Positions 1-20,684 of a DNA stretch of 64,000 nt are shown here, in pieces. The stretch comes from an uncultured Acidobacteriota bacterium. GTDB taxonomy: Bacteria > Acidobacteriota > Vicinamibacteria > Vicinamibacterales > 2-12-FULL-66-21. The notes under the pieces were generated by a model. It was not told where the DNA came from, searched no databases, and was given only the letters and a program-made list of their open reading frames with translations. The stretch is from assembly GCA_963847125.1 (NCBI GenBank), contig CAWJYM010000006.1, forward strand, positions 6,602 to 70,601, given 5' to 3'. Position 1 is the first letter of the stretch; every line of letters starts with the position of its first letter. A program made the position numbers and the translations under genes.

Positions 1-1114
1 CGATCCGGTCGATGAACTTGACGTTCCGCGGTTCGAGCGTCAGGCCCGTGTAGCGCTTGTCGAGCGCGCGCGCGACGGCCTCGGGGTGCGCCGCGATCTT
101 CTCGTCGAAGATATTGTCCTCGTGCAGGGCGATCACGCCGAGGCGCCAGCCCGTGCAGCCGAAGTACTTGCTGTAGGAATACACGCCGATCGTGTTCCTC
201 GGGAACTCGCCGAGGAGCGACCGGAATCCCGGAACGAACGTCCCGTAGACGTCGTCGGTGAGCAGCAGCAGGTCGGGGCGCTTTTTGAGGACGTCGCCGA
301 TCCGCGCGATCGAGTCGCGGCTGAGCGCCACGGCGTACGGGTTGCCCGGATTGACGACGAAGAAGGCCTTGACCTTGGGATCCAGCAGGGGCTTCAGATC
401 CTCCTCCGTGAACTGCCATCGCTGCTCCTGCCGTGCCTGGATGAACACCATCTTCAGGTCGTAGTCTTCGAGGTGCGGCATCTCGAGATACGGCGTGAAG
501 ATGGGGGTCACCATGGCGATCGTGTCGCCCGGGTTCAGGAGGCGATTCAGCTTGAGCGACTTGAAGATGTAGCACATCGCCGCCGTCCCGCCCTCGACCG
601 CGTACAGGGCGAACGTGCCCTTCGGCCGCGGCTCGCCGCACATGGCCCACTGCAGGTACTCGCGAACGATGCGTTCGTTGTGGACGAGCATCCGATCGGG
701 GACGGGGTAGTTATCGCCGATGATCGAATCGACCAGCTCGTGCACGAACGCGTCTGCGTTGAAGGCGAATGTCCTGACCGCCCAGGGAATGACGTTCTGC
801 AGGAACGTGGCGCCGGGCATGTCGGCGTGCGCCTTGAGCCAGGCGTCGAGGCGCGCGGCGACGCCCGGGGCCTTCGGCATGCCCCCCACGCCCGCTGGCA
901 GCTCCATGGTGCGCTGGCTTTCGGTAATGGCGAACTGGCCGAGCAGGAAGAAGCCCGAGCGCGGCTCGGTCGCGATCCAGTTCGGATTACCTCGTCCCGC
1001 GTTCAGATACGCGATCTGCGCGGCCTTGGCGCTCTTGGTCGCGATCTTCGCCAGATCGTTCTTGATTTCGAACGGGCTGAGCGTCTCGTACTGACGCAAC
1101 GTCACGGCATCCAT
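1..1114 (-). CDS. asdA: aspartate 4-decarboxylase (PLP-dependent AsdA/AspD type); C-terminus runs off the left edge
   Basis: Absent from the ORF track because it leaves the window. My minus-strand translation from ATG 1114 (GGAGA about 8 nt upstream) gives MDAVTLRQYETLSPFEIKNDLAKIA..LNAGRGNPNW..DNYPVPDRML..AVEGGTAAMCYIF..FVVNPGNPYAV..LLTDDVYGTF..YSYSKYFGCTGWRLGV. This is colinear with aspartate 4-decarboxylases as I remember them. Confidence 0.8.
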   Translation of the reverse strand, partial: MDAVTLRQYETLSPFEIKNDLAKIATKSAKAAQIAYLNAGRGNPNWIATEPRSGFFLLGQFAITESQRTMELPAGVGGMPKAPGVAARLDAWLKAHADMPGATFLQNVIPWAVRTFAFNADAFVHELVDSIIGDNYPVPDRMLVHNERIVREYLQWAMCGEPRPKGTFALYAVEGGTAAMCYIFKSLKLNRLLNPGDTIAMVTPIFTPYLEMPHLEDYDLKMVFIQARQEQRWQFTEEDLKPLLDPKVKAFFVVNPGNPYAVALSRDSIARIGDVLKKRPDLLLLTDDVYGTFVPGFRSLLGEFPRNTIGVYSYSKYFGCTGWRLGVIALHEDNIFDEKIAAHPEAVARALDKRYTGLTLEPRNVKFIDRI

Positions 1115-1141
1115 AGTCCGTCTCCTGCTCTCGCGAGCCTT

Positions 1142-2845
1142 CTAGCCGAATCTGCTCATCACGAGCACGATGGCCATCCCGAAAATCGTGAGGAGCGTGT
1201 TGCCGATCGCGTAGGGCATCCCGTAGCCCAGCGCCGGGACCTTGCTTCTGGCCGCATCCTGAATCATGCCGAGCGCCGCGGTCGTCGTTCGCACGCCGGC
1301 GCAGACGCCGAACAGGATCGCCGGGTCGAACTTGAAGACGTGGTACCCGAGCAGAATCCCGATGACGAGCGGCACCGAGGTCGCCACGACGCCCCACACG
1401 AAGAGGCTCAGACCCACCTGCTGCAGGCCGGTCACGAACGCCGGCCCCGCGTTGATCCCGACGACGGCAATGAAGACATTGAGGCCGAGGGTGTTCATCA
1501 GGTTCAGGGCCGCGGCCGGAATGCGCCCGAATGTCGGACGAACCGCCCGGAGATACCCGAGGATCAGACCCGCCAGCAGCGCGCCGCCCGACGTCGACAG
1601 CCCGATGGGAATCCCTTTCCAGTTCACACTGAGCGCCCCCACCAGACCGCCGATCACGATCCCCCCGGCGACGGTCATGAGATCCGTCGATTCCAGCGGT
1701 CGATCTGCGTAGCCGAGGGCCCTGGCGGCTTCCTCGACATGCCGCGTGGTGCCCACGACCGAGAGGATGTCGCCCCGCAACACTTCCAGCTCGGGGAGAA
1801 TCGGCAGCTCCACCATGTTCCGCGTGATTCGCCGGAGGTAGACGCCCCGTGCGAATGGCTGGTCGGCCAGTTGCCGCAGCGTCGTGCCGCTCATCGCCTT
1901 GTTCGTGACGAAGATGTCCATCGCGGTCGCCGGGACCTGCAGCAGGCTGGGGTCGTGCACCTCCGGGATCGCGGGTTCGACGTGCTCGACCAGCGCGGCA
2001 TGCGGGCCCGAAATGGCGACGACGTCCCCCGGCGCGAGGACCGTGTCCGGTCCCGCCTCAATCACGGCGTCGCCGCGCCGGACCCGTTCGACGAAGACAC
2101 GAAGGCCCGGGAAGAGATCGCGCACGGGTCGGCCGGTCAGGGCGGATGCGGCGTCGACGCGGTACGCGCGGATCTCGATCGCGCGGTAGGCCGAGAAGAC
2201 GCCCGGATCGAACTCGACGGTCCCACCGCCGAGACGGCGTTCGTACGCGACGCAGGCCGCCGGCAGGTCGATGCCGATCAGCTTCGGGCCGAGCTGCGCG
2301 AGCAGGATCGCCGATCCAATCGTGCCGAAGATGTAGGTCACGGCGTAGCCGATGGGCACGGCGTCGGTGTATCGCTTCGCCTCTGCCGCCGCCAGGCCCA
2401 GCCGCTCGATCTGGTCCGAGGCGACGCCAATCGACGCGGAGATGGTCTGCGAGCCGGCATAGAGGCCGGCCGCGTAGCCCAGGTCGAGACCGGCCACGAG
2501 AGCGCACAGAATCGGGACGACCAGGCAGAGAGCGAGCACGACCAGCGAGAACGCGATCTGCCGGGGCCCGTCGCTGCCGAGCCCTCGGAAGAACTGCGGG
2601 CCGACGCCGTAGCCGACCGCGAAGAGAAACATGAGAAAGAAGGTGGACTTGATCGGTCCTTCGATCGCAAGCCCAAGCTGGCCGATCAGGATGGCCGCCA
2701 GGAGCGTGGCGGTCACGCTGCCGAGCGAGAATCCCGCAAGTTTCCGTGGACCGATCCCGAACCCGGCCGCCAGCGCAAGGAAGACGGCGAGCTCGGGATA
2801 GGCCCGCAGGGTCGCGACGAACCAGCTCCAGACGGCGAGATCCAT
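1142..2845 (-). CDS. aspT: aspartate:alanine exchanger family transporter (AAEx, YidE/YbjL-type duplication with two central RCK_C-like domains)
   Basis: Intact 567-aa ORF. Hydrophobic halves flank two soluble repeats (PGDVVAISGP.., RGDILSVVGT..). It lies 27 nt upstream of asdA, the classical aspT-aspD pairing. Confidence 0.7.
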   Translation of the reverse strand: MDLAVWSWFVATLRAYPELAVFLALAAGFGIGPRKLAGFSLGSVTATLLAAILIGQLGLAIEGPIKSTFFLMFLFAVGYGVGPQFFRGLGSDGPRQIAFSLVVLALCLVVPILCALVAGLDLGYAAGLYAGSQTISASIGVASDQIERLGLAAAEAKRYTDAVPIGYAVTYIFGTIGSAILLAQLGPKLIGIDLPAACVAYERRLGGGTVEFDPGVFSAYRAIEIRAYRVDAASALTGRPVRDLFPGLRVFVERVRRGDAVIEAGPDTVLAPGDVVAISGPHAALVEHVEPAIPEVHDPSLLQVPATAMDIFVTNKAMSGTTLRQLADQPFARGVYLRRITRNMVELPILPELEVLRGDILSVVGTTRHVEEAARALGYADRPLESTDLMTVAGGIVIGGLVGALSVNWKGIPIGLSTSGGALLAGLILGYLRAVRPTFGRIPAAALNLMNTLGLNVFIAVVGINAGPAFVTGLQQVGLSLFVWGVVATSVPLVIGILLGYHVFKFDPAILFGVCAGVRTTTAALGMIQDAARSKVPALGYGMPYAIGNTLLTIFGMAIVLVMSRFG

Positions 2846-2856
2846 CGCGTCCCCGG

Positions 2857-3933
2857 TCAGTACTTGTCGAAGAGTTCCTGGACCTTCTTCGGGTCCGAGG
2901 ACTGGGTCAGCGCGAGCTTCAGCAGCACACGCGACTTGGATGGGTTGAGCTCCTTCGACACCACCGTGCCGGTCTTGTCGTCATCCACCTCGATATTTCG
3001 GCGGACGATTCCCTCCCCCACTCGCGTCGATCGCACGACGACGACACCCTTTGCGAGCGCGCGCTTGACCGCCTCGAGCGCCGGCGTCGTCATGTTGCCG
3101 TCGCCGACGCCGGCGATGACGATCCCTTTCGCGCCGCCCGCGACGGCGGCATCGATCAGGTCGGGAGACATCCCGGCGTGCGCGTAAATGACGTCCACGC
3201 GCGGCAGGGTCTGGCCCGCGGTCACCTTGAATGGCGTCGCGGTCGTGTGCGCCCGTGCCGGCGACCGGGAGAACTCGCGGTCATCGAACAGACACACGCC
3301 AATCAACCCCGCTTCAGGGGAGACGAACGTCTCGACGTCGGTGGTGTGCCGCTTGGTGATGGCGCGCGCCCCGTGGATGTCGTCGTTGGCCACGACCAGC
3401 ACGCCCCGGCCCTTGGCCCGCGGATCGCCCGCGACGCCGACGGCGTTGTAGATGTTCAGCGGGCCGTCGGCGCTGAGCGACGTGGACGGGCGCATCGAGC
3501 CGGTCAGCACCACCGGCTTGTCGCTCTTCACGACCAGATTGAGGAAATAGGCCGTCTCCTCCATCGTGTCGGTGCCGTGCGTGATCGCCACGCCGTCGAC
3601 ATCGGACTTCGCCAGCAGACCATTGACCTCGGTCGCGAGCTTCACCCAGAGCTCGTCGTTCATGTCCTGGCTGCCGACCGACGACACCTGCACGCCGCGC
3701 ACGTCCGCGAACTTCTTCATCTGCGGCACGGCGTTGATCAGCGTCTCCACCGCGACCGCGCCGGACTTGTATCCAGCCGCGGTCGTGGATTCGGCCGAGC
3801 CGGCGATGGTCCCGCCGGTGGCGACGATGACGATCCTGGGCTTGGCTCCCTGCGCGCCGGCCGGGACTGTGCGAATCACGACGGCACCAGCCACGGCCGC
3901 GGCCAGGGACACATACAAAACGTTCCGGTACAT
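2857..3933 (-). CDS. ansB: periplasmic type II L-asparaginase
   Basis: ORF 2857..4173 trimmed to ATG 3933, giving the signal peptide MYRNVLYVSLAAAVAGAVVIRTVPAGAQG. Motifs IVATGGTIAG and ITHGTDTMEETAYFLNL are present. Confidence 0.85.
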   Translation of the reverse strand: MYRNVLYVSLAAAVAGAVVIRTVPAGAQGAKPRIVIVATGGTIAGSAESTTAAGYKSGAVAVETLINAVPQMKKFADVRGVQVSSVGSQDMNDELWVKLATEVNGLLAKSDVDGVAITHGTDTMEETAYFLNLVVKSDKPVVLTGSMRPSTSLSADGPLNIYNAVGVAGDPRAKGRGVLVVANDDIHGARAITKRHTTDVETFVSPEAGLIGVCLFDDREFSRSPARAHTTATPFKVTAGQTLPRVDVIYAHAGMSPDLIDAAVAGGAKGIVIAGVGDGNMTTPALEAVKRALAKGVVVVRSTRVGEGIVRRNIEVDDDKTGTVVSKELNPSKSRVLLKLALTQSSDPKKVQELFDKY

Positions 3934-3955
3934 GTTGACCTCTGAACTTTCTGCG

Positions 3956-5024
3956 TCAGCTTCCGCTCTTCCTCGCCGCGTACGGATTTCCGCCCAGCGC
4001 ATTCGAGATGTCGGTGATCGCCCGCTGCGCGCGCACGCTGTTGCCCGCATCGTCGAGCGGCGGGGACACGACGGCGATGCCGAACTTGCCCGGCGAGACG
4101 GCGATGATGCCGCCGCCGACGCCGCTCTTGGCCGGCAGTCCCGTCGCATAGAGCCACTTGCCCGAGTCGTCATAGAGTCCGGCCGTCGCCATCACGGCGA
4201 GTACGCCGGGCACCCTGGCCGGGTCCATCACCTGCTTGCCCGTGACGGGGTTCCTGCCGCCAAACGCCAGCGTGGCCGCCATCATCGCCAGATCGTTCGC
4301 GTTGACCCCGATCGAGCACTGGCGCGTGTAGAGATCGACCGCCTGCTGCCAGTTGTTCTTGATGTAGCCGTAGGCGAGCATGAGCGCGCCGATCGCCTGG
4401 TTGCGCTGGTTCGTGTCGGACTCCGACTTGTAGACGTCCTGGAGCACGCTCAGCTGGCGTCCCGCGGCGTCGTTGTGGAAGCCGATGATCTTCTTCCAGA
4501 CCTCGTCGGACGAGGATCCCGTCACCATGCTGGTCGCCGAGATGGCGCCTGGATTCACCAGCGGGTTCATCTCCGGCGCGCCCGTCCCGACGACGGTCCG
4601 GACGCCCTCGATCGCGATGATCGAATTGAAGCGCGCGCCCGTCGCGTCGACGCCGATGCGCTTCGCGACGGAATCCAGCCCCTGTTCCTGGATGACCTGC
4701 GCCATCGTGAAGACCTTCGAGATCGACTGGATCGAGACCTCGGTCTTCACGTCGCCCGCGGAGAAGACCTTGCCGTCCGCGGTCACGACGGCGATGCCGA
4801 ACAGGTTCGGGTCGACCTTCGCCAGGGCCGGGATGTAGTCCGCGTTCTTGCCTTCCTTCAGCGTCCTGAACTTCCCATAGGCCGCGTCAACGGCCTGTTG
4901 CACCTGGGAGGATGAGGCGGGCTGGGGTGGAGTGGGCGCCTGCGCGCCGAGCGACGGCATGCCCAGGGCCAGCAGCGCCGAGCAGCCCCGCCCCGAGAGA
5001 AACACGCCGATTCCGTCGATTCAT
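3956..5024 (-). CDS. glsA: glutaminase A with N-terminal signal peptide (probable 1-nt indel near 5003)
   Basis: ORF 3956..5005 carries YIPALAKVDP and the SxxK motif QSISKVFT. GGAGG-N6-ATG at 5024 opens MNRRNRR in a neighbouring frame, so the real start is probably 5024 with a frameshift a few codons in. Confidence 0.8.
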
Positions 5025-5026
5025 GA

Positions 5027-6286
5027 TCAACCTCCAAGCTTCCACGAGAAGTTGTATTTGAACGAGAACTGCACCTTGACGCCGTCGCTCGTGAACCCGT
5101 CCGAGAAGTTCTCGCGGCGGCCCCACTGGAATTCGCCGGCGACCATCACATTCGGGGCGGGGTAGTGGACGAGGTTGCCCACCACGTAGTGACCCGTCCT
5201 GAAGGCGCTGGGCGCCTGCGCGTCGGTGTTGTCGTTCTCCTGCCACGAGTAGCCGATCGAGGTGCTGTATTCCTCGCTGAAGGAGTGATCGAGAAACGCG
5301 ACGATGCCGAGGATCGGGACCGGTTCGCCGACGACCGGCGTCACCGGGTTGGAAAGGTTATTGGCGATGCCGATGTCTATGGGAGAGTCGTTCATGTAGT
5401 TCTGAATGCCCTCGCCAAACACGAACTGCAACCGGATCGTGCTCGCCTTGCTCGGCTTGAGGTTCGAGCTGAGGTTGATGCCCCATCCCCAGGCATCGCC
5501 CGAGAGGTCGAATTGATCGTCGAGGACGTCGTCCCACTTGATCAGCCGGAGCATGCCGGCGGCTCTGCAGGTAGCCCCAGTCCTGTGAGTACTTGTAGGC
5601 GCCGGAGAAGTCGGGCAGCGGGAATCGTGCCCGGATGTTCTGCAGCTCCACACGGTCCGCATAGACGCCCGAGTCGCCGCTCGCGCCGGGCCGCTCGACG
5701 GCGAGCGTGAGGCTTGGCGGTTGGCATCCAGCGGACCTGCACGTTGCGAAACAACACCATGCCGGTGGGTCCCCAGTACTCGACAATGTTCGGGAAGACG
5801 TCCGGATCCATGAACGGGCTCCACCACTGGCCCGCCCCGAATTGTCCGAGCTCGCCATATGCGTGGCGGAGGCGGAACGTGGTCTGCCCCTCGTCCACGC
5901 CCACGCCGAACAGCTCGAACTCGAACGTGGTCTTCAGGTCGCCCACCGCCGTCGGCGTGGTCGATCGCACGCCCAGGCGGCTCTGCCGGACGCCGGCGAA
6001 CGTGCTGCCGTCCTCGCCGAACTGATTCTCGAATGAGGGCAGCCTGGTGAGACGCAGCGTGTCGAACCAGTTCGGGTTGATCTGCGTGAAGTTCCCGCCG
6101 ATGTCGAGCATCGCGAAGCCGTAGATCTCGAAGCTCGGCTTCGTTTCCTGCGGGCATGCTCGGAGGCGCAGGTGCTGGCCTGCTGGGCTGCGTCTCCTGC
6201 GCGCGCGCGATCGAGGAGCCGCCGACGATCAGAAACGCCGTCAGCCAGATCAAACCGGTATGCCGGTTCGTCGGTGTTCGTCGCAT
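5027..6286 (-). CDS. outer-membrane porin (DcaP-like beta-barrel), reading frame broken at least 3 times
   Basis: AAGGAGAG SD plus ATG 6286 gives the signal peptide MRRTPTNRHTGLIWLTAFLIVGGSSIARAQE. It continues in other frames as FEIYGFAMLDIGGNFTQINPNWFD.. (ORF 5542..6111), ..FPLPDFSGAYKYSQDWGYLQ (ORF 5358..5858) and ..FSFKYNFSWKLGG (tail of ORF 5027..7204). Confidence 0.55.
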   Translation of the reverse strand: MRRTPTNRHTGLIWLTAFLIVGGSSIARAQETQPSRPAPAPPSMPAGNEAELRDLRLRDARHRRELHADQPELVRHAASHQAALIRESVRRGRQHVRRRPAEPPGRAIDHADGGGRPEDHVRVRAVRRGRGRGADHVPPPPRIWRARTIRGGPVVEPVHGSGRLPEHCRVLGTHRHGVVSQRAGPLDANRQASRSPSSGPARAATRASMRTVWSCRTSGHDSRCPTSPAPTSTHRTGATCRAAGMLRLIKWDDVLDDQFDLSGDAWGWGINLSSNLKPSKASTIRLQFVFGEGIQNYMNDSPIDIGIANNLSNPVTPVVGEPVPILGIVAFLDHSFSEEYSTSIGYSWQENDNTDAQAPSAFRTGHYVVGNLVHYPAPNVMVAGEFQWGRRENFSDGFTSDGVKVQFSFKYNFSWKLGG

Positions 6287-6312
6287 GTCTGTCTCTCCTT
6301 GTCTGAGTGCAT

Positions 6313-7445
6313 TCATTGCGACGTTTGCCTTTTCCCACGCGCGGACACGGCGCCGGCCTTCGTCGAAGATCCGCTCGTAATTGCCCTTCCGGACTTTCAG
6401 GCTCGCGTCCGGCGTGAGCAGGCGCCAGACCGGCGCCCACATGTCGAACACGGCGAAATACGGCGCCGGACCGGCCGGCGCCACGGTGTCGGTTCCGAAG
6501 AGGAACCGGTCGGGATACTTGTTGAGCATCGCCGCCACGCGCTTGACGGACTCCGGCGAGGCCACCGCGTACTTGGCGACCTCGTCCCAGGAGATATCGA
6601 AGCTCACATGGGCGAGCGCCGGATCGGTGAGCATCGCCTCGACGATCCCGACGTGCGTGGGCGTGCGCTCGGCCGCCTCGGCCGACACCCGCACCGGATG
6701 GACGATCCGTCCGAGGCCGATGTGCGCCCAGATGATGGTCGTCTTCGGGTGGCGCTTGAGCAGCGCTTTCATCTGAGACAGGTACACCGGCTCCGCGTCG
6801 GTCTTCGCGAACGGCATGTCGATGTCGTTGTGGAGGATCACGACGAGGCCCGACTCTGCGGCGAAGTCGAGGATGCGGTCGAGCGCGGGATTGGTGAGGC
6901 TGGCCGTCTCGCCGGAGATCTTGGCCGAGACGAATTCCTTGTGGATGCTGAACTCGCCGATGCCGGAGAAGACGCCGGGAAACGCCTTCAGCACCCGCCG
7001 GATGTGATCGACGCCGTACATGTCGGCCGGGTTGAAGCCGGTGATCATCGGATCGAAGCGCGCCTGTTCCTCCTTCGAGAGCGAGCGATAGACGGCCGCG
7101 ATGTACGCGTCGGTGAACGAGTAGTAGTAGAGCGGCGCGTCGCTCTGCAGGTAGTAGGTCGGCGCGAAGTCGCCGGAATTGCCGTACGACCACTGCTGCT
7201 GCAAGCGGGATGCCGAAGAGCGTCGAGCGGCCGACGCGGTTCCCCATGATCTTGAGGAACTGACGCGGCTCGATGCCCTCCTGGATGTAGTTCGTCAGGT
7301 GGAAATGGGAGTCGTTGAAACCGTCGGCCGGTCCCTGTCCCTGCGCGCCGGTGGGACGCGCGAGAAACATCGCGGACAACGTCAGGCTCGCGAGGGCAGC
7401 CAGGAAGACGGCCGACCGGGACGACAGGTGGCGAAGGATCTTCAT
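6313..7445 (-). CDS. secreted metal-dependent amidohydrolase (TIM-barrel, Amidohydro_2-like), two frame breaks
   Basis: ATG 7445 gives MKILRHLSSRSAVFLAALASLTLSAMFLARPTGAQG..DSHFHLTNY. The frame switches near 7205 into ORF 5027..7204 (QQQWSYGNSGDF..HNDIDMP..WAHIGLG..FGTDTV). No in-frame stop precedes the next gene. Removing one A of the A4 run (6330..6333) gives a stop at 6313. Confidence 0.6.
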
Positions 7446-7452
7446 AGATCGA

Positions 7453-9031
7453 TCAGAAATTCATCTCGAGATTGATGTGGAAGACGGGTCCCTTGGACCC
7501 GACCGCGTACGGATAGGCGGTATATCCGACCGGAGACCCGTTCACGTACATCAACTCTCCGTTCACTCGCAGCCCCCGCTCCTTCATGAAGTACCAATTG
7601 GCCCCGCCCCGCACTTCCCAGGGGTCGCCGAAGTCGCCGTACACCTGCGAGGTGCCGAAGTACACCTGAAGGATCCTCGGAACGGCCATCGCGGAGGCCT
7701 GCAGCTGATAGCCGGTGTCGTCGATGTTCGGGATGCTGCCGGTGTTGAGGCCGGTGAAGTTCCTCAACCAGCGCCAGTACACCTCGCCTTCGAGCGCGAT
7801 GCCCTTGTACTTGACGCCGGCGTCGATGCTCACCATGTGGTAGTCCACCTCGTTGACGGTGATCCCCTGGCCGAAGAGGTCGGGCGTGAAGATGATGCTG
7901 CCGTCAGACAGACGGATCTGGCTGTTCTCGATCGACTCGGTGCCCGGCTGGCTCTGTCGCTCCTCGAGGCTGTGCGTGTAGTGCAGGCCGACCCGCGTGG
8001 CGACCTTCTGGTGATCGTCGTAGTCGCCGAACGTGTTCCACAGGCCGAACTCGCCGGTCGTGGGCAGCCACACCAGGGAGTACGATTGCGTATCGAACTT
8101 GTTGTCGAGTTGCGCGGCGCTCACGCCGAGCGTGCTCAGATTGTTCCCGACCATCACCTGGTACTTGAGCTCGGTCTGGAACTCGCCTTTCAGCCACACG
8201 CCACGTCGTGTACGAGCCCCTGAAGAACTCGTCGGCGATCAGGCGATTGTCGACGCCCAGCCAGTACGGGAACTGGCCCTCCGTACTCCGTACCGACGGC
8301 AGTGAAGTGATACCGGCACCGACGGCGATGTGCCTGTTGAAGCTGAACGTGAGGTTTCCCGCGCCGACGACCTGTGCCGGATCGCCCTGCGACGTATTCG
8401 CGGACCAGACATAGAGGTAGTAACGGAACTTCGGCGTGAGAAACCATCCGGAGAATGGCGCGAAGAACTTCTGCAACTGCACGTCCTGGCGCCGTTGCAC
8501 CGTTTTTGTGTTGCCGAACGCGTCGACATAGGTCTCGTCCAGATTTCTCTGGTTCAAGTACCTCGCGTAGCTGAAGAGCCGAAAATAGATCTGGCCCTTC
8601 TCGCCGTCGACGAGCAGGAACCCGACGTTGGGAATGTACTGAAGCGGCTTCGGCTTCGTCGTCTCCGGCTGTGCGGCCTGGCCGGTGATGAACTCGCCGC
8701 TGCAGCCGTCGGAGACCCAGATGTTCGTCTGATCGTAGCCCCACGTTCGTCCGAGCAGACACGCTGACTCGCCGGTCGAGCGCTGCAGCACGACGCCCGC
8801 CGACGTGTCGGCCGCGCAGTTCGTGCGTTCTCCGGGCTTCGACGCGCACAAAATGGAGACCGCCGCCAGCTGCGCGGCGGCCTGGGCCGTGCGGCGCAGC
8901 GCCGGCCCCGGTCGGCGGCGCCGACGTCTCTTGCGCGCTGATCGAAGAAGTCGAAAGCAGGAAAAAGGCGGCGGTGACGGCGCGCGTCTCTGAATCGCGC
9001 GTGGATTCCGGGCCAGTAGCAGTCTAATCAT
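7453..9031 (-). CDS. DUF3011-like Cys domain fused to a porin-type beta-barrel (frame breaks near 8203 and in the signal-peptide region)
   Basis: ORF 7904..9061 contains CASKPGERTNCAADTSAGVVLQRSTGESACLLGRTWGYDQTNIWVSDGCSGEF, which fits the DUF3011 pattern. This is followed by beta-strand-rich sequence that continues in ORF 7453..8199 and ends ..HINLEMNF. Confidence 0.5.
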
Positions 9032-9044
9032 CCGCTGTGCGCTC

Positions 9045-9060
9045 AGCACGCGCGGTGCCA
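9045..9060 (-). promoter_or_regulatory. sigma-54 (-24/-12) promoter candidate P1, reading leftward into the porin/Asn-Gln-Asp operon
   Basis: The minus strand reads TGGCACCGCGCGTGCT. GG (9059/9058) and GC (9047/9046) are 12 nt apart. The site is intergenic and correctly oriented. Confidence 0.6.
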
Positions 9061-9152
9061 CGCACAGTCAGCCGGACCAACGCCGTCCAAGTCGTTGACC
9101 GCGAACGAGTCCCGCGAGCGACCGAGCTACGGACTCACGGCTGGCCCTCCGA

Positions 9153-9180
9153 TATTCCGGAGCACCTCCGGTATAACGGC
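9153..9180. promoter_or_regulatory. 28-bp conserved site A (putative enhancer/UAS)
   Basis: TATTCCGGAGCACCTCCGGTATAACGGC. It shares ATTCCGG-N5-CTCCG-N6-CGG with sites at 19888, 31181 and 37339, and lies about 105 bp from both flanking -24 elements. Confidence 0.55.
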
Positions 9181-9268
9181 AGGTTCCACCCGCGCGAAGG
9201 GGCGTCCGGGATCGCGCAATCTTCCCGGCACCCAACCGGTTAGACTGTTCGCGTACCCGCGGTGCGTC

Positions 9269-9284
9269 TGGCATGTCGGGTGCT
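9269..9284 (+). promoter_or_regulatory. sigma-54 promoter candidate P2 for the lipoprotein-porin pair
   Basis: TGGCATGTCGGGTGCT, with GG at 9270/71 and GC at 9282/83. Predicted +1 is about 9295. AAGGAGAGAGG SD and ATG at 9321. Confidence 0.6.
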
Positions 9285-9320
9285 CACGTTCGATTCAGAT
9301 CTGGGCTAAGGAGAGAGGAA

Positions 9321-10029
9321 ATGAAAAGGATCGGTTCACTGGCGCTTGTCGCCGTGACCCTCGTGGCGTTCTCCGGTTCGGGCGCTGCCTGGACGCGGCA
9401 GCAGCCGACCGTGGCAGATCCCCAAGCCCGGCGTGCCGGAGATCATGACGCTCGAGGGGATGTACGTGCGCGCCGCGTACAACAACGAAGGCTATGCGAT
9501 CCTCGGCTATCGTCTCGCCAACCTGTCGATCGGCGAAGAGTGGATGCTTCTCGAGTTCGGCACGACGGTTCGCGATGGCGTGCCGAACTACACGCTGAAA
9601 CGCGACGCGCTGTCGATCGAGACGCCGGACGGCAAGACCATTCCGATGGCGACCAACGCGGAGTACCTGAAGGTGGACCTGCGGGCGATGCAGAATCGCG
9701 AGAAGGTCCAGCGCGACTCGATCAACTACTTTCCGCCGAGCGCGACACACGCGTGCCGCATCGGGTTCTTCGCCGAGGTGGGCTCGCGCCAGATGGCGTT
9801 CGACGAGGTCGAGCTCAGCAACACGCGCGGATGCGTCGGCCGGATCTTCTTCCAGGTGCCGGGTGGGATTCAGTACGGCCAGCACTGGCTCAACGTGAAG
9901 TTCGAGAAGAGTCTCGTCCGCGTGCCGTTCAGGATCCTGACGAAGGACGAAGAGAAGCTGCTGTCGAAGAACTACAAGGACATCCGGAAGCAGGTCCAGG
10001 ACGCCTTCAAGCCGAAGAAATCGACCTGA
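9321..10029 (+). CDS. secreted or lipoprotein of unknown function (frame break near 9420)
   Basis: ATG 9321 follows a strong SD and gives MKRIGSLALVAVTLVAFSGSGAAW. It continues in ORF 9433..10029 (..IPKPGVPEIMTLEGMYVRAAYNNEGYAILGY..). I recognise no family. Confidence 0.45.
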
Positions 10030-10047
10030 CGGACGAGTAGCGCCATC

Positions 10048-11126
10048 GTGACGCCACCGATCACGGCGCTACTCACGCTCTATCTGAGTGTGGCGGCGGC
10101 TTCCCGCGCCGGCCAGGCGGTGGCGCAAGGCCGCGCCGCCGCAGGAGGCCGACGCCGACAAACACACCGGCCTTCAAGATCAGCGGCCTCGTCTACGGCG
10201 ACTACTACTATGTCGCCGCGAATCACCGCGACGAGCTCGTCGATCGGAACGGCTTCTGGCTCCGGCGTGTGTACTTCACGTACGACCACACGCTGACGCA
10301 GGCGTTCTCGTTGCGCGTTCGGCTCGAGGTGAACAGCGAGGGCGACTTCGTCTCGACCGGCGTCAACAGCCCGTACCTGAAGGACGCCTGGCTCAAATGG
10401 ACGCGCGGGTCGCACGCGCTCACCTTCGGCATGGCCTCGACACCACAGATCGAGTTCGTCGAAGGCTTTCAGGGCTACCGCTCGATCGAGAAAACCCCCA
10501 TCGATCTGTACCGCTGGGACTCCTCGCGGGACCTGGGCATCCTGCTGCAGGGCCGCCTCGGCGGCGCGCAGCGAACGAGCTACTCGGTCCAGGTGGGCAA
10601 CGGATCGGGAACCGAATCCGAAGTGGACCGGAGCAAGTCCGTGCGGGCGCAGCTGGCCCATCGCTTCGAGGGCGGCCTCGCGCTCGAGGGCTACGCCGAC
10701 TGGCAGGATCGACCCGACGGGCGAGACATCTCGACGCTCGAGGCGTTTGCCGGCTGGCAGGAAAAGACGTGGCGCGCGTCTCTCGAGTACGGCTCGCAGA
10801 AGCGTCGCGACGCCTCCGACTCGGGGGGCGATCTGGATCTCGAGTTCCTGTCCGCGTTTGCGACTGTCCAGCTGACCTCGAAGCTGGCGGCCGTGGGTCG
10901 AGTCGACCGCAGCTTCGACCCGATCCCGGACGGTGAGACGATCGACTACATGCCGTTTGCCGACACGGCCCGCTCGTTCTTTGGCTACGCGGCGATTGAC
11001 GTGACGCTTGCGCCGACGGTGCACCTCATTCCGAACGTCGAGTGGACGACGTACGGACGGGGACCGGACGGCACGACACCGGCATTCGACCTGGTTCCGC
11101 GTGTGACGCTGTTTTTCAGCTGGTAG
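10048..11126 (+). CDS. outer-membrane porin-like beta-barrel (frame break(s) near 10150)
   Basis: Signal-like VTPPITALLTLYLSVAAASRAGQAVAQ, then PAFKISGLVYGDYYYVAANHRDE.. in the frame of ORF 10269..11126. Alternating beta pattern, with an aromatic end ..RVTLFFSW. Confidence 0.55.
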
Positions 11127-11614
11127 ATCGAGCCCAACGATTCGAGACGGCTCGGGCCAGCGCATAGGGAAGCATGATCAACACGGGGCCCGACGACGAG
11201 CGCCGCGCCGGGATGCGAGACGCCCAGGATGATCCGCTGGAAGATCGCATCCATGAGGATGCCCATCAGCAGCAGGTTGATCACGGTCTGGAACGCGCTT
11301 CTCACGAGCGCGCCGCGCACACCCGAACGGAACAGCACGCCGGACAGATAGGGCGGCAGCCCCGCCTTCGCGTCAGCCAGCCCGCTTCGGACGCCCAGGA
11401 TGACCGCGACGAGGGGTTGCACGACGAATCGGAATTTACCCGGGCCGGCGAGCCTTCGGGGGATGTCCTCGAGGAAGGCGCGCGAAAAGAGATAGATGCC
11501 TCCCCGTTCGTACGCGTCACCGAGCGCCGCCGGCGCCGACAGCACGAGCACGAGCAGCGTGACGCTCGCGAGAATCGCGGTGACGCTCCCGCGACGCCAT
11601 CGATTCCACCTCAC
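11116..11614 (-). CDS. small integral membrane protein, unknown family (frame break at C4/G4 run 11185..11188)
   Basis: GTG 11614 overlaps the SulP stop (GTGA). Removing one base of the homopolymer gives ..HPGAALVVGPVLIMLPYALARAVSNRWARSTS with a stop at 11116. Confidence 0.45.
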
Positions 11615-13324
11615 GGCGACGCGCTGCGGTCCGGCGGCCGCGTCGACGCCTTCCAGTCAGACACGACGAGATCGACGGTTTGTCCCGATTGGAGCGGACC
11701 GTACTCCTGTTCGAAGCCGATCCGCCGGAGCGCCTCTCGGACCTCGCCGTGCACTTCGGCCAACCGGAACTCGATGCTCGCGAGCGCGGAAGTGTTTTGT
11801 GCAGGTCGGCGAGGAGCTCGGCGCCGGCGAGATCGATTCTCGGCACCGCGCCCATGAAGAACACGACGAGCCGCACGGCATCCGTGCGCACGTTCAGAAG
11901 CTCGAACAGCCGCTCACGCACGAATTCCACGTTGAAGTACAGCAGCGCCGACTCGCAGCGGACCACGAGCACGCCGGGCGTGCGTTCGTTATCCGGCTGA
12001 CGCGAACGGTCGGCGTAATAGGTCGTTCCGGGGACGCGCGTCAGCTCGGTGACCCGCGGGCGTGAGGCCTGGCGCAGCAGGAGCACGATCGATATCGCGG
12101 CCCCAAGCAGTACGCCGTTGACCGGCCCGGATCCGAGCACGCCGACGAGCGCCGCGATCGCCACGAAGAACTCCCCGCGGCTGAATCGCCAGATGTGCCG
12201 CAGCGCGTGGACGTCGACGAGGCTCATGACGGCGGCGAGCACGATCGCCGCCAGGACCGGCTGCGGCAGGTTCCGCAGCAGTCCGGAGGCAAAGAGCACG
12301 ACGAACGAGCGTGAAGATCGGCGGCGACCAGGCCCGACAGCGGCGTGCGCGCGCCCTGCGCTCTCGTTGACGAGCGACTGCGACATGCCGCCGCTCACCG
12401 GAAACCCGCGGCCGATTCCCGCGGCGAGATTGGCCGCGCCGATCGCCAGCAGTTCCTGATTCGCGTCGAACCGATGGCCGTGCTTCTGGCCGAACATCCG
12501 GCCGATGGCGGACGACTCCACCGCGGCGAGGACGAACGCCGCCAGCGCGATGGGCAGGAGCGCGTTCAGCTCGTGCGGCTGACAGGACGGCACGCCGAGC
12601 GAGCGGCAGGCCCTGCGGCACATCGCCCAGCAACGACACGCCCCGTGCCTCGAGGCTCAGGAATCGCGCCGCCAGCATGCCGGCGACGACGACAAGGAAC
12701 GCCACCGGCCGGTTCTTGAGCCAGAGCTTGCCGGCAATGAGAACGGTCAACGCAACCGCTCCCACGAGCAAGGACACCTCGTGCGTGTCGCCCAGATGCG
12801 CGAGGAAGTAGCCCGAGCGCTCCCAGAAATCGCCGTGCGTGCCCTTGAAGCCAAACAGCTTGGGAAGCTGCGTGCTCGCCAGGTACAGCGCCAGTCCCGC
12901 CTTGAAGCCGACGAGCACGGTTTCGGAAAAAAAGCCGACGGCAGTGCCGGCGCGGACGAGCCACGCCACGAACGCAATGCCGCGACACGATCAGCGCCAC
13001 GCACGCAGCCAGGGCCGCGTGCCGCGCCGGATCGCCGGCGCTCAACTCCCCCACCGACGCGCCGACGAGCAATGACAGCGCCGACGTGACGGTCACGACG
13101 GTGTGCTTCGAGCTGCAGAACAGCCAGAAGATCAGCCCGGAAAAGAGGCACGCGTAGAGGCCCGCTTCGGGCGGAAGGCCGGCGAGCGACGCGTCGCCGA
13201 TCCCCGCGGGCAGGAGGTAGGCGGCAAGCGTGAGGCCGGCGATGAGATCGGGCCGCAGCCACTCGGCCCGATACTCAGGCAGCCACCGGAGGGCCGGCAG
13301 CGCCAGCGCGGTAGGTACGGTCAC
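11611..13324 (-). CDS. SulP-family anion transporter with C-terminal STAS domain (at least 6 frame breaks)
   Basis: Pieces lie in ORFs 12566..13324, 11989..12969 and 11517..12623. They include LPAGIGDASLAGLPPEAGLY, FFSETVLVGFKAGLALYLA, GGMSQSLVNESAGARTPLSGLV (the last only after frame correction), and the STAS part VLVVRCESALLYFNVEF...LAGAELLADLHKTL. Confidence 0.7.
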
Positions 13325-13734
13325 GTTCTCCGGCGCCGCTTGACGTGCAGCTGCGCCAGCGACCGCGCGAGCGAGGCGTTGACCGACGCGACCTCCTCAT
13401 CCGAGATCTTCTCGCGAAGTCGGGCTGCGGCGCGCTGGCGCGCCTCCTCCACTTTGGCTTCATCGACCTGCTCGGCGGGAATCGCCATGTCGGTGACGAT
13501 CGACACGCGGTCGGCGGTGATCTCCACGAGCCCTTCGCCCACCGCGAGCAACCGATCCTGCCCGTCCCTGGTGACGATGATCCCGCCCGGCACGATTTGC
13601 GTGATGAGCCTGACGTGGTGCGGATACACCCCGAGCTCTCCCTCGATGCCCGGCAGGGTGACCATGTGGACGTCCTCGGAGAAGACGGTCCCCTGCGGCG
13701 TGACGATTTCCAGCTTGAGGGTGTCCATACTCAT
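13321..13734 (-). CDS. atpC: F1 ATP synthase epsilon subunit
   Basis: Intact 137-aa ORF at the last position of the atp operon. Its stop overlaps the SulP GTG start (GTGA). Confidence 0.85.
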   Translation of the reverse strand: MSMDTLKLEIVTPQGTVFSEDVHMVTLPGIEGELGVYPHHVRLITQIVPGGIIVTRDGQDRLLAVGEGLVEITADRVSIVTDMAIPAEQVDEAKVEEARQRAAARLREKISDEEVASVNASLARSLAQLHVKRRRRT

Positions 13735-13876
13735 ATGGGGCTCCGCCCCAAACCCCGGCTCGGTCGCTCGCGCCCTTCGACGCTGCTCAGGGCGTCCCGA
13801 GCAACGTCGAGGGACGGGGGCCCCTACGCCCCGCTCCGCTCCCTCGCGAGGCGCGCCGTGCGCGCCTCAACCCGCC
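13735..13876. repeat. GC-rich REP-like intergenic element with internal hairpin
   Basis: Fills the whole atpD-atpC spacer. CCCTTCGACG..CGTCGAGGG inverted repeat. No ORF support. Confidence 0.4.
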
Positions 13877-15282
<1,406 letters not shown>

Positions 15283-15318
15283 GCTCCTACCTGTCTGCGA
15301 AATCTGAGAGTGTTCGGC

Positions 15319-16185
15319 TCATTCGGCCTGACCGCCCGCGATCTCCAGTAGTTCCTTCGTGATGTTGCCCTGCCGCAGCTTGTTGTATTCCAGCTTCAGC
15401 GCATCGATCAGGGTCTCCGCGCTGTCGGTGGCGTTCTTCATCGACACCATGCGCGCGCTCTGCTCGCTGGCCTTGGCATTCAGCAACACGTAATAGATGT
15501 AGATATTCAGGTAGTGTCCGAGGAGATAGCCCAGAAGCGCCTCGGGGCTGGGCTCGAACAGCGTTTCGGCCGTGTCGGCCGCCAGGGCCTCCTCGCGTTG
15601 CGCCCCGACGACCTTGACGCCTTTGATCTCCCCCACCGGCAGATACTCGATGGACACCGGCTCCTGCGTGAGCGTGTTGACGAAACGTGTCGTGACGATC
15701 CGGACCTGATCCACCTCCCCCTTCAGGAAGAGGTCGCGGGCGAAGCCGGCGATGGCTCTCGCTTCGGGAAACGTCGGCGAATCGCCGTAGGCGAACTCGG
15801 CGGCCAGATTCCGTCCGGTGCGGGCGACGAACTGCGCGGCTTTGCGGCCGGCCGTGATGAAGATCGTCGACGCCGGATCGAACTGCGCCGCGACGCGGAA
15901 GACGTTGGTGTTGAGCGCCCCGCAGAGGCCCTTGTCGGCCGCGATCAGGATGACCGCGCGCTTGCGGACCTCGCGCGCTTCCAGAAGCGGATGGGTGAAG
16001 TCGACGGTCCGCGTGGTCGCGCTGCGCTGGATGCGGTACAGGAGGCGCGCGAAGGGCTGGGTGGCAATCGCCGCCTGTTGCGCCTTGCGCATCTTCGACG
16101 CGGCCACCATCTGCATGGCTTTCGTGATCTGCGCGGTGCCGCTGATCGACTTGATCCGCCGGCGAAGCTCGCGGGGGCTGGCCAT
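15319..16185 (-). CDS. atpG: F1 ATP synthase gamma subunit
   Basis: Intact 288-aa ORF with ..[17 protein letters not shown].. and ..[12 protein letters not shown]. Confidence 0.9.
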
Positions 16186-16186
16186 C

Positions 16187-17721
<1,535 letters not shown>

Positions 17722-17759
17722 GTGTCTCTCACCTCACCGCGCTGCCGGACGGCTCGACC

Positions 17760-18152
17760 TCACAAGCGCGCCGCGAGAGCGGCCAGCCGCGCCCTCACGG
17801 TGCCGTCGTACACGTCGCTGCCGACCTTTATGCGCATGCCACCGATGAGCGCCGGGTTCTGGCCGAACGACGTTTCCAGCCCGCGGCCATAGACGCGCGT
17901 CAGGCCGGCCTGGACGGTTTCGCGCACGCTGCCGGCGAGCGGCGCCGCGGTCTCGACGACAGCCGTATGCCGATCGCGTTCGAGTCGCACCAGGCGCTGA
18001 AAGCCAGACAAGATGGGCAGAGCGCCTCGGCGCCTGGACTGGGCGACACCCCGCGCGACCTGCCGGACGCGGCCCTCGTCCAGCAGGCCGTCGACCAGAC
18101 ACAGCTGGAACAGTTGTCGCGCCGCGCGCCTGGCCTTTCGGCTCTGCTTCAT
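17760..18152 (-). CDS. atpH: F1 ATP synthase delta (OSCP) subunit, short form
   Basis: 130-aa ORF between atpF and atpA, with a C-terminus ..ALIGGMRIKVGSDVYDGTVRARL typical of delta. Confidence 0.7.
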   Translation of the reverse strand: MKQSRKARRAARQLFQLCLVDGLLDEGRVRQVARGVAQSRRRGALPILSGFQRLVRLERDRHTAVVETAAPLAGSVRETVQAGLTRVYGRGLETSFGQNPALIGGMRIKVGSDVYDGTVRARLAALAARL

Positions 18153-18154
18153 TC

Positions 18155-18664
18155 CTACGACGCCAGTTGCCTGGCCGTCTCCTCCGCGAGCCGGCGATGA
18201 TCCTCCGGCGTCAGGACCTTGCCCGTGACCGTCGCGGTCGTCTCCACGACGAGCCGGCCGACCTCGCGCTTCAACTCAGTGAGCATGTGGGCACGGTCCC
18301 GCTCGGTGGCTTCGCGCGCCCTGATCATGATCTGTTCGGCGGCGGCGATCGCCTTCTGAGTTTCCTGCGCCTGGACGCGGGCGGCCGCGGCGCGCGCTTC
18401 CTCGATCAGCCGCTTGCCCTCGGCATCGGCCTTCATCAGCACCGTCTGACGGTCCGCTTCGATGCGCGCCAGCTCCGCTTTGATCTTCTCGGCGTTGGCC
18501 AGACCGCTCGCGATCTGCTGCCGCCGCGCCTCCAGCATCCGGAGAATCGGTTTGTACGCGAGGAGGTACAGGACGCCGCACACGATCCCGAAGCTGACGA
18601 TCTGGGCACCCAGATGAGGCCAGTCGACGCCGAACGTGCGGGCGACCTGTTCGATCTGTCCCAT
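18155..18664 (-). CDS. atpF: Fo ATP synthase b subunit
   Basis: 169 aa. One N-terminal TM segment, then a long charged helix (..EARRQQIASGLANAEKIKAELARIEADRQ..). Confidence 0.8.
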   Translation of the reverse strand: MGQIEQVARTFGVDWPHLGAQIVSFGIVCGVLYLLAYKPILRMLEARRQQIASGLANAEKIKAELARIEADRQTVLMKADAEGKRLIEEARAAAARVQAQETQKAIAAAEQIMIRAREATERDRAHMLTELKREVGRLVVETTATVTGKVLTPEDHRRLAEETARQLAS

Positions 18665-18673
18665 GCTGACCGC

Positions 18674-18865
18674 CTACTGCTGCACGAGGAACAGGGCGTA
18701 GAACACAATCGCCTCGGCGAAGGCGATGGCCAGAATGGACTGGACCATGATCTTCGTGGACGCGCCGGGATTCCGGCCGACCGCTATCGACGCGCCCTGG
18801 CCGATCAACCCCACGCCGATGGCCGCGCCAAGAGCCGCGAGGCCGACATGAATGCTTCCGATCAT
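18674..18865 (-). CDS. atpE: Fo ATP synthase c subunit
   Basis: 63-aa hairpin protein with an RNP loop and the carboxylate in ..AIAFAEAIVFYALF. Confidence 0.85.
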   Translation of the reverse strand: MIGSIHVGLAALGAAIGVGLIGQGASIAVGRNPGASTKIMVQSILAIAFAEAIVFYALFLVQQ

Positions 18866-18890
18866 CTGAGTTGTCCTTTCTGTCCGGCGT

Positions 18891-19745
18891 TCAGCCGTGC
18901 GCGGCCGCGGCCCCGGCTTCCTCGTGATGCTGACAAATCAACAGCGTGAAGACAGCGGTCAGCAACATGAAGACCATCGCCTGCACCAGACCCACCAGCA
19001 GCTCCATGAAATAGAACGGTATCGGCAGCAACCACCCGAGACCCGGCACGATCGTGGCCATGGCCTCGAGCATGTTCTCGCCTGCGAAGATGTTCCCGTA
19101 GAGACGAAAGCTCAGTGAGACGGGGCGGAACAGGATCGACACGATCTCCAGGCAACCGGCGGCGAAGAACACGACGACCATCAGGACCTTCAAGAACCCC
19201 GTCGTCTCTCCCTTCGGCGCAAAGAGCTCCTTGACGATGCCGCGCGGGCCGGTTTCCTGGAGCGCCCAGATGATCCACCACGCGAAGAACACCAGCGCCA
19301 TCGCCAGCGTCAGGTTGAGATCGGCGTTCGCTCCCCGAAAAAGGGGCTGTTCGATGACGAACCGGTGAGCGGTCTGGTGTCCCCACCCGATCGTTCCAAC
19401 GCCAGGGATGAGGCCCATCCAGTTCGCCGCGAGGATGAAAATGAAGGTGGTCGCGAAGAACCAGAAGGTCCGCTCGACCAGGTGCTTGCCGATGATGCTC
19501 TCCAGGAGGCCGTACAGGCTCTCCACCAGCCACTCCAGGAAGTTCTGAGCGCCCTTTGGAACCTGGGTCATCTTGCGTGTCGCGATTTGGGCAAAGACGA
19601 TCAGCCCAAGTGCCACGATCCACGTGACGACCATGGAGTTCGTGATGGGAAAGCCGAATGGACGCCCGATCTCGACCGCCTTCTGCGACAAGCCGTGTCC
19701 GACCGGTTCGGCGAGGCCGAAGCAGACGATGTCGAGGATGTTCAT
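18891..19745 (-). CDS. atpB: Fo ATP synthase a subunit
   Basis: 284-aa polytopic ORF with the stator arginine region ..SLSFRLYGNIFAGE.. Confidence 0.85.
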   Translation of the reverse strand: MNILDIVCFGLAEPVGHGLSQKAVEIGRPFGFPITNSMVVTWIVALGLIVFAQIATRKMTQVPKGAQNFLEWLVESLYGLLESIIGKHLVERTFWFFATTFIFILAANWMGLIPGVGTIGWGHQTAHRFVIEQPLFRGANADLNLTLAMALVFFAWWIIWALQETGPRGIVKELFAPKGETTGFLKVLMVVVFFAAGCLEIVSILFRPVSLSFRLYGNIFAGENMLEAMATIVPGLGWLLPIPFYFMELLVGLVQAMVFMLLTAVFTLLICQHHEEAGAAAAHG

Positions 19746-19768
19746 GCGAGTGCCGCGTTCTCGCCGGC

Positions 19769-20674: not shown

Positions 20675-20684
20675 GGCTCAAAAA

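Follow-up and report, generated by a model that had tools for sequence, protein, structure and literature searches.

Described systems closest to the locus

In Tetragenococcus halophilus, the aspD-aspT genes combine electrogenic Asp(1-):Ala(0) exchange with cytoplasmic decarboxylation (PMC9508256, PMC12462496). AspT/AsdA is the textbook example of how precursor/product exchange generates proton-motive force (pmf); nearly all work on it comes from a lactic acid bacterium. Here we analyze an AspT/AsdA locus in a stretch of 64,000 nucleotides from an uncultured Acidobacteriota bacterium (GenBank assembly GCA_963847125.1, contig CAWJYM010000006.1, positions 6,602 to 70,601 of the forward strand), referred to below as the window. 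On balance, we lean towards the view that window positions 1-9031 hold the first seven genes of a nine-gene, sigma-54- and enhancer-dependent operon of a Vicinamibacteria-like soil acidobacterium, in which one gene module (module B) lies within another (module A) and the products would form a pmf-generating pipeline from Asn through Asp to Ala. As in T. halophilus, AspT and AsdA equivalogs adjoin on one strand and the Asp-binding residues are conserved. Unlike that system, the host is diderm, asdA is flanked by two AspT paralogs (44% identical), a predicted secreted AnsB, glutaminase and amidohydrolase are co-encoded with three or four outer-membrane proteins, and control appears to involve sigma-54 and an enhancer.

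Three other systems come close to the proposed pathway. The ansB-aspA-dcuA cluster of Actinobacillus succinogenes, like AnsB/DcuA/AspA of E. coli, comprises a periplasmic asparaginase II, an Asp antiporter and a cytoplasmic aspartase (PMC10634366). The present locus would likewise combine periplasmic Asn deamidation, Asp antiport and cytoplasmic Asp conversion with product export in one cluster, but the antiporter is AspT (AAEx family) instead of DcuA, and a decarboxylase yielding Ala, CO2 and pmf replaces an aspartase that feeds fumarate respiration. In Pseudomonas, AauSR and RpoN control aatJQMP together with AnsB, a glutaminase-asparaginase of the periplasm, and Ggt; the site of AauR is TTCGG-N4-CCGAA (PMC7962211). 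Common to both are a sigma-54 promoter preceded by two N4-spaced palindromes of 14-16 bp (here TCCGG-N4-CCGGA), and periplasmic deamidases under one control with an acidic-amino-acid transporter. The candidate activators, however, are PAS-GAF enhancer-binding proteins (EBPs) here and a response regulator there, the transporter is an antiporter and not an ABC importer, porins are co-encoded, and an ATP synthase operon shares the regulatory design. In the Lactobacillus casei alf-2 cluster, the glycosylasparaginase AsnA2 occurs with AsdA (PMC6960285), so that an Asn-amide hydrolase and AsdA are again found together, with Asp as the proposed link; there, all steps are cytoplasmic, AspT is missing and the substrate is a glyco-amino acid.

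For the porins, the best described relatives are the DcaP proteins of Acinetobacter baumannii, which are carboxylate carriers (bioRxiv 10.1101/2025.07.02.662759; PDB 6eus). The third operon gene matches the Pfam DcaP family, and Asp and Glu would be in keeping with anionic carboxylate substrates, but identity to the A. baumannii proteins is low. A. baumannii DcaP has an N-terminal periplasmic coiled coil. This is lacking in the form found in the window and in its relative L001, a metagenome-assembled genome of an uncultured Acidobacteriota bacterium with 93% DNA identity to the window, and other relatives have a glutaminase domain at that position.

The order of periplasmic deamidase, acidic-amino-acid transporter and cytoplasmic converting enzyme, sometimes under sigma-54, is thus already known. 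A preliminary description of this DNA had presented the extension of AspT/AsdA by porins and periplasmic amidases as new. We found no description in the literature of AnsB joined to AspT/AsdA, of a double AspT, of co-encoded porins, of a glutaminase-porin fusion or of an enhancer common to an ATP synthase operon, and to that extent the claim stands; the design principle itself had been described with other transporters (PMC10634366, PMC7962211).

Gene content and composite structure of the operon

At 65% G+C many long open reading frames (ORFs) in the window are spurious, and real genes were picked by stop-to-stop translation and a frame plot of third-codon-position G+C (GC3). High-GC3 plus-strand ORFs within 1-9031 (e.g., 86-3187) were rejected as antisense shadows of minus-strand genes, as expected at this G+C. 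Seven operon genes are read from position 9031 down to 1, with start codons at 9031, 7445, 6286, 5024, 3933, 2845 and 1114:

7453-9031, minus strand: gene 1, DUF3011-porin with a signal peptide, a Cys-rich DUF3011 domain and a porin-like beta-barrel of ~390 aa
6313-7445, minus strand: gene 2, predicted secreted Amidohydro_2 hydrolase (PF04909), 375 aa in relatives
5027-6286, minus strand: gene 3, DcaP-like outer-membrane porin (PF19577), 418-420 aa in relatives
3956-5024, minus strand: gene 4, glutaminase A homolog (NF009020, PF04960) with an N-terminal signal-like sequence
2857-3933, minus strand: gene 5, AnsB, type II (periplasmic) L-asparaginase, intact, signal peptide MYRNVLYVSLAAAVAGAVVIRTVPAGA/QG
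1142-2845, minus strand: gene 6, AspT1, aspartate:alanine antiporter of the AAEx family, intact, 567 aa
1-1114, minus strand: gene 7, AsdA, aspartate 4-decarboxylase (PF00155), first 371 of 544 codons, at the window edge

The intergenic gaps are, in order, 7, ~26, 2, 22, 11 and 27 nt, in agreement with the tightly packed same-strand genes reported initially, and each of the gene identities then proposed was matched by curated Pfam or NCBIfam models above cutoff. Neither sigma-70-like promoters nor an excess of terminators was found inside the cluster, and Rfam and tRNA scans of window 1-21000 gave no matches. The products of genes 1-5 all carry N-terminal signal-like sequences, judged by eye rather than with a predictor; signal peptides had been claimed before for the glutaminase and the asparaginase.

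Curated models and conserved residues identify the core pair as a genuine AspT/AsdA module. AspT1 and its paralog AspT2, known from the relatives, scored 604 and 600.5 bits against TIGR03802 (cutoff 547), whereas models of the YidE/YbjL type stayed below their cutoffs (PRK04972, 310 vs 645; PRK03818, 168 vs 449), which rules out the YidE/YbjL-type transporter that the preliminary description had named among the findings that would overturn its reading. AspT1 gave a full-length alignment with the solved T. halophilus AspT (8y1x, E=2e-51). Five of the six Asp-contacting residues, at positions taken from T. halophilus AspT (PMC12462496), were kept (T130, S132, Y167, L431 and T496) and S498 was replaced by T, a pattern shared by AspT2. 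AsdA starts at ATG 1114, 27 nt from the AspT1 stop at 1142 and on the same strand. It was scored on the full-length L001 ortholog, encoded in a region that shares 93-97% DNA identity with the window, and reached 732 bits with TIGR03801 (cutoff 435) and 739 with NF006755 (cutoff 321). The ortholog also matched PDB 2zy2 and 3fdd over its full length (E ~1e-148) and keeps the SKYFG motif of the pyridoxal-phosphate lysine; with its equivalog assignment, this alignment to solved L-aspartate beta-decarboxylases bears out the predicted aspartate 4-decarboxylase identity. AnsB scored 436.6 bits against TIGR00520 (cutoff 314) and matched Pfam Asparaginase and Asparaginase_C; its N-terminal hydrophobic signal ends in AGA/QG and is followed by the ATGGT motif, and dN/dS relative to L001 was 0.02.

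The assignments of genes 1-4 are of unequal strength. The glutaminase scored 424.6 bits against NF009020 (cutoff 395) and has a signal-like N-terminus in L001 and in L093 (GCA_975095315.1, 92-95% DNA identity over window 1-17555), which is absent from E. coli YbaS; the window copy has an indel at ~4976 within the signal region. Gene 3 scored 57-58 bits against Pfam DcaP (cutoff 27) and is intact in L001 and L093, but the window copy has frameshifts at ~6149, 5718 and 5568. Its L001 ortholog has only ~20 Pro-rich residues from signal peptide to barrel, while distant DcaP orthologs (L065, L025) contain the coiled coil. In two independent assemblies, a complete glutaminase domain (residues 51-337) is fused to a DcaP-type barrel in single ORFs of 725 and 735 aa (L003 3937-6111 and L088 11189-13393), and the same gene is split by frameshifts in L089 and L090. 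This domain is missing from the window and L001 orthologs, but the fusions tie the porin to glutaminase.

Gene 2 scored 35-41 bits against PF04909 (cutoff 26.4) and contains the DSHFH (HxH metal) motif; in the window it has a frameshift at 7204, and an insertion at 6321 puts its stop codon out of frame. The earlier label of amidase could not be established. Sequence and profile searches of the PDB found no relative, and a fold-based substrate assignment was abandoned, the AlphaFold2 (AF2) model having a predicted local distance difference test (pLDDT) score of 56 and Foldseek matches only to generic amidohydrolase-superfamily TIM barrels (template-modelling score ~0.4, dihydroorotase at the top). 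Amide, lactone and decarboxylation substrates are indistinguishable from sequence, profile or model. Gene 1 is 516-525 aa long in relatives, intact in L001 and L093, and broken in the window by indels at 9025-8987, 8895 and 8204. Its N-terminal domain is DUF3011 (PF11218), set on a long beta-rich protein, as first described. The porin part of the name comes from a low-confidence AF2 model (pLDDT 57 overall, 77-91 in long beta-hairpins), for which all Foldseek matches were 16-strand porins of the anion-selective type, headed by OprP, OmpT, OprO, Omp32 and DcaP; the C-terminal barrel matched no Pfam family even at E=10, and a phmmer search of the PDB was empty. Gene 1 may thus be called a porin-like barrel as a class only.

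In L093 the order is DUF3011-porin, Amidohydro_2, DcaP, glutaminase, AnsB, AspT1, AsdA, AspT2 and DUF481, followed by a convergent CaCA gene. L001 has the same order, with all genes intact in both, and all operon genes are also intact and in the same order in L003. A contig scan with AspT1 returned a single locus. Because the gene order of the window is kept in L001, L093, L003 and L004, the arrangement is not due to chance. The seven genes described initially were all recovered, but the extent of the operon has to be revised: L001 and L093 add AspT2 and a DUF481 outer-membrane protein to make nine genes, and therefore the window ends inside the seventh of nine.

The nine genes fall into two modules. 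Module A consists of the DUF3011-porin, Amidohydro_2, DcaP (often with an N-terminal glutaminase domain), glutaminase and DUF481 genes, and stands alone in L088, L089 and L090. Module B consists of AnsB, AspT1, AsdA and AspT2, and stands alone in L002. In L093, L001 and L004, module B lies between the glutaminase and DUF481 genes of module A, the pattern expected from insertion. Judged by gene order, the operon is composite, with module B inserted into module A, and the picture of a single evolved seven-gene pipeline gives way to a fusion of two modules that each also occur on their own. Nor do the DUF3011-porin and the amidohydrolase appear dedicated to AspT/AsdA, as had been proposed for the porins, since in most cases they are encoded without it; their homologs in soil metagenomes (>8000 close ones for the amidohydrolase) are far more abundant than the combination. 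In Luteitalea pratensis, a cultured member of the Vicinamibacteria (L091, CP015136.1, 10001-13196), a 77%-identical DUF3011-porin (LuPra_02372) has a Cyclase-family (PF04199) protein and then a glyoxalase encoded behind it, in place of module A. The hydrolase that accompanies the DUF3011-porin thus varies from genome to genome.

To see how often the genes recur together, we compared 84 soil loci, comprising 80 metagenome loci from a scan with the AsdA alignment (69-84% identity) and L001-L004. The following neighborhood counts are lower bounds, many contigs ending early:

AspT-AsdA only: at least 33 of 84 loci
AspT-AsdA-AspT: at least 20 of 84 loci
AnsB homolog contiguous: at least 14 of 84 loci
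DcaP-like porin contiguous: at least 7 of 84 loci
glutaminase contiguous: at least 6 of 84 loci

Close homologs of AsdA number in the thousands in soil metagenomes, and a second AspT is often present. AnsB adjoins AspT/AsdA in at least three gene orders, upstream in one lineage (AnsB-AspT-AsdA-AspT, in the close clade) and downstream in others (AspT-AsdA-AnsB, DcaP-AspT-AsdA-AnsB and AspT-AsdA-AnsB-Gls), and the AnsB proteins of these loci all have signal peptides. Because the association recurs in different gene orders, there is good evidence for a functional link between a periplasmic asparaginase and AspT/AsdA. The evidence for linking the DcaP-like porin and the glutaminase to the pair is moderate. 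The expected synteny was therefore found for AnsB and, less often, for the other two. The annotated Rhizobium, Ruegeria and Bacteroides loci hold the aspT-asdA gene pair only.

Other neighbors were seen in individual loci. On plasmid pT136c of Rhizobium sp. T136 (L005, 1357-12558), aspT-aspD occurs with a carbonic-anhydrase gene and with genes for DUF2254, a decarboxylase of 912 aa and an HdeA/HdeB chaperone, surroundings that look like an acid-stress island; in L088 and L089, DUF2254 is a neighbor of module A as well. Pyruvate formate-lyase and the enzyme that activates it are encoded near the cluster in L001 (18186-21289, minus strand) and directly upstream of DcaP-AspT-AsdA-AnsB in L065 (3411-6451, plus strand). 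With only two loci, these neighbors give hints of an anaerobic context.

Sigma-54 promoters, the enhancer and linked units

Two elements upstream of gene 1 point to control by sigma-54:

9045-9060, minus strand: sigma-54-type -24/-12 promoter TGGCACCGCGCGTGCT, 14 nt upstream of ATG 9031
9147-9181, either strand: enhancer (upstream activating sequence), with the palindrome CTCCGGAATATCGGAG at 9147-9162 and a degenerate copy at 9166-9181, 19 nt away

Exact -24/-12 matches occur three times in the window, against 0.05 expected. The operon promoter is identical in L001, reads TGGCATttggcgTGCT in L004 and TGGTACcggccgTGCT (one mismatch) in L003, and in L002, where module B stands alone, a sigma-54 element (TGGCACttttcgTGCT) lies upstream of AnsB. 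A first enhancer candidate, CCGGAG-N4-CTCCGG, was at chance level and was replaced by the motif CTCCGGAATAnCGGAG, which has six matches in the window against 0.12 expected, all of them 85-130 nt upstream of the three -24/-12 elements. The enhancer site is invariant in an alignment of the window, L001, L003 and L004, and is also found in L088, L089 and L090, which have module A only. The sigma-54 promoter proposed earlier is thus joined by an upstream enhancer, both conserved in relatives, and sigma-54 control of the operon is well supported at the sequence level.

The same type of element precedes further genes of the window, which also encodes candidate activators:

9269-9284, plus strand: divergent sigma-54-type promoter TGGCATGTCGGGTGCT, predicted to use the same enhancer
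9321-10029, plus strand: divergent gene for a secreted protein of ~235 aa without known family, with a frameshift at 9414
10041-11126, plus strand: second divergent gene, OprP-like porin (the L001 ortholog has a weak Porin_O_P match)
13321-19916, minus strand: F1Fo ATP synthase operon of the H+-type at a distance of 10 kb (subunits in the canonical order a, c, b, delta, alpha, gamma, beta, epsilon)
29229-31209, minus strand: third sigma-54 and enhancer unit (promoter 31083-31068, enhancer 31175-31209), DUF3302 and an HlyD-like membrane-fusion protein
20670-22640, 31123-33207 and 33327-35471, plus strand: three paralogous enhancer-binding proteins of PAS-GAF-AAA+ (Sigma54_activat)-HTH_8 architecture

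The enhancer lies between two divergent sigma-54-type promoters, and this layout is also present in L001, L088 and L089. The regulon seems rich in outer-membrane proteins. In L004, a small OMP_b-brl gene (14667-15545, minus strand) carries a sigma-54 element (15408) and an enhancer palindrome (15530) of its own, and similar small outer-membrane proteins are encoded divergently from module A in L003 and L088.

The ATP synthase operon has a sigma-54 promoter at 19784-19769 and two enhancer palindromes at 19882-19916, and by this shared design it probably belongs to the same regulon as the AspT/AsdA operon, of which it is not a part. It seems to continue into a gene for a SulP-family anion transporter: the start of the SulP/STAS gene (L093 3765-6375; window ~10985-13260, minus strand) precedes the atpC stop by 4 nt, and the end of this gene is overlapped by an ORF of 165 aa. 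Bicarbonate and C4-dicarboxylates/aspartate are among the substrates of the SulP family. In B. finegoldii (L006), too, aspT-aspD is located near an F0F1 operon, at a distance of ~4 kb.

Proposed pathway and competing explanations

The pathway proposed here draws on knowledge of the protein families, from which co-transcription, localization, substrates and energetics are all deduced. Asn and Gln, or their acidic products, would cross the outer membrane through anion-type porins and be deamidated in the periplasm by AnsB and the glutaminase, releasing NH3. AspT would then exchange Asp(1-) for Ala(0), generating a membrane potential, and AsdA would convert Asp to Ala and CO2, using up a cytoplasmic proton. 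On balance, each Asn would yield roughly one proton-equivalent of pmf, together with ammonia and alkalinization. An enhancer-binding protein would turn the operon on, with the three PAS-GAF EBPs encoded 11-25 kb away as candidates, and the same switch appears to govern the nearby F1Fo ATP synthase operon. That the porins admit the substrates of this pipeline is plausible because the Foldseek matches of gene 1 are anion-selective and carboxylates are carried by DcaP porins. Less certainty nevertheless attaches to the role of the porins and the amidohydrolase than to the AnsB-AspT-AsdA chain.

Several observations weigh against this pathway. The DUF3011-porin and amidohydrolase are mostly found without AspT/AsdA, so that regulation may be all that connects them to the Asp pathway. 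The substrates known for DcaP porins are di- and tri-carboxylates rather than amides (bioRxiv 10.1101/2025.07.02.662759). With neither a glutamate transporter nor a glutamate decarboxylase encoded, the glutaminase branch lacks an obvious cytoplasmic sink. AspT2 has no clear role. The promoter is only ~14 nt from the annotated ATG, so that either the mRNA is near-leaderless or a different start codon is used. None of the three candidate EBPs adjoins the operon. In public RNA data, a single RNA-labelled soil run matched, with 6% of the words; its coverage is patchy and may stem from DNA, and is thus uninformative on co-transcription. Finally, as written, the window has four genes out of frame (DUF3011-porin, amidohydrolase, DcaP-like porin and the signal region of the glutaminase).

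These broken frames could mean that the window copy is a decaying pseudogene cluster, as would fit at least nine frame-breaking indels in four of seven genes (at 9025, 8895, 8204, 7204, 6321, ~6149, 5718, 5568 and ~4976) and the lost stop codon of the amidohydrolase. The GC3 frame plot likewise changes frame inside the DUF3011-porin, amidohydrolase and DcaP genes, three times in the last. However, the single-base changes private to the window, counted against L001 and L093, are 24 insertions and only 5 deletions, all within 4976-16726, with none in 1-4975, and these also affect the SulP, F1 alpha and F1 beta genes outside the operon. The extra bases at 5568, 5718, 6321, 7203, 8203/4 and 8896 are absent from short-read contigs of several unrelated soil runs. 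Compared with L001, dN/dS is 0.02-0.18 across all seven genes, and the 0.16-0.18 of the broken genes equals that of the intact AspT1. From ~20.6 kb onwards, ORFs of 650-890 aa are intact again. As two relatives and the short-read contigs lack the extra bases and dN/dS is low, the most likely source of the frameshifts is a faulty consensus over a locally poor part of the assembly, and real decay appears very unlikely. The ATP synthase delta gene is likewise broken in the poor-consensus stretch.

If the genes are sound, they could still serve two unrelated functions that happen to be co-transcribed, module A as a nitrogen-scavenging or envelope unit and module B as a self-sufficient Asn/Asp-to-Ala unit, with porins and an amidohydrolase that feed nothing specific to AspT. 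This would agree with the solitary module A of L088-L090, which has the same promoter and enhancer, with the solitary module B of L002, which has a sigma-54 promoter to itself, with the excess of amidohydrolase and DUF3011-porin homologs over the combination, and with the pairing of the DUF3011-porin with a Cyclase-family hydrolase in L. pratensis. Yet a DcaP-like porin lies directly upstream of aspT-asdA-ansB in independent lineages (L025, L064, L065) and a glutaminase follows ansB in L026, so that the association with module B recurs, and the insertion ahead of DUF481 is kept in L093, L001 and L004; we consider separate functions possible, if on the doubtful side. The same parts could also serve another purpose, compatible with the pmf pathway, namely pH homeostasis (acid resistance) over energy, in which periplasmic NH3 buffers, decarboxylation consumes protons and the co-regulated F1Fo may reverse and expel protons. 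Such a role would be in line with the aspT-aspD genes in the acid-stress island of Rhizobium sp. T136 pT136c, whose DUF2254 is shared with the module A flanks of L088 and L089, and with a module A that has no inner-membrane transporter, as would fit a periplasmic ammonia generator. Gene 4 moreover is a glutaminase A equivalog (NF009020), and the glutaminase A family underlies Gln-dependent acid resistance in E. coli. By contrast, the PAS-GAF sensor domains of the EBPs give no hint of pH sensing, the pyruvate formate-lyase and activating-enzyme neighbors in L001 and L065 point to anaerobic energy metabolism, and no acid-chaperone genes lie near the operon in the window, which makes acid resistance as the main purpose rather unlikely.

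The pmf pathway could be part of a wider scheme, a sigma-54/EBP regulon for 'decarboxylation phosphorylation' in abundant, Vicinamibacteria-like soil Acidobacteriota that unites pores and deamidases, a double-AspT/AsdA unit, a co-switched F1Fo and, in relatives, substrate channeling by a glutaminase fused to the periplasmic end of a DcaP porin. We regard this broader scheme as distinctly unlikely, but if true, such bacteria would draw energy from amide amino acids without respiration. The AspT2 paralog, the glutaminase-porin fusion, the very conserved secreted amidohydrolase and the sigma-54 enhancer common to the ATP synthase operon are objects on which these ideas can be tested. If the pipeline works, Asn and Gln derived from roots and necromass would serve abundant but poorly cultured soil bacteria as a source of ATP, pH relief and ammonia, and the pipeline would offer one candidate explanation for their survival under energy or oxygen limitation.

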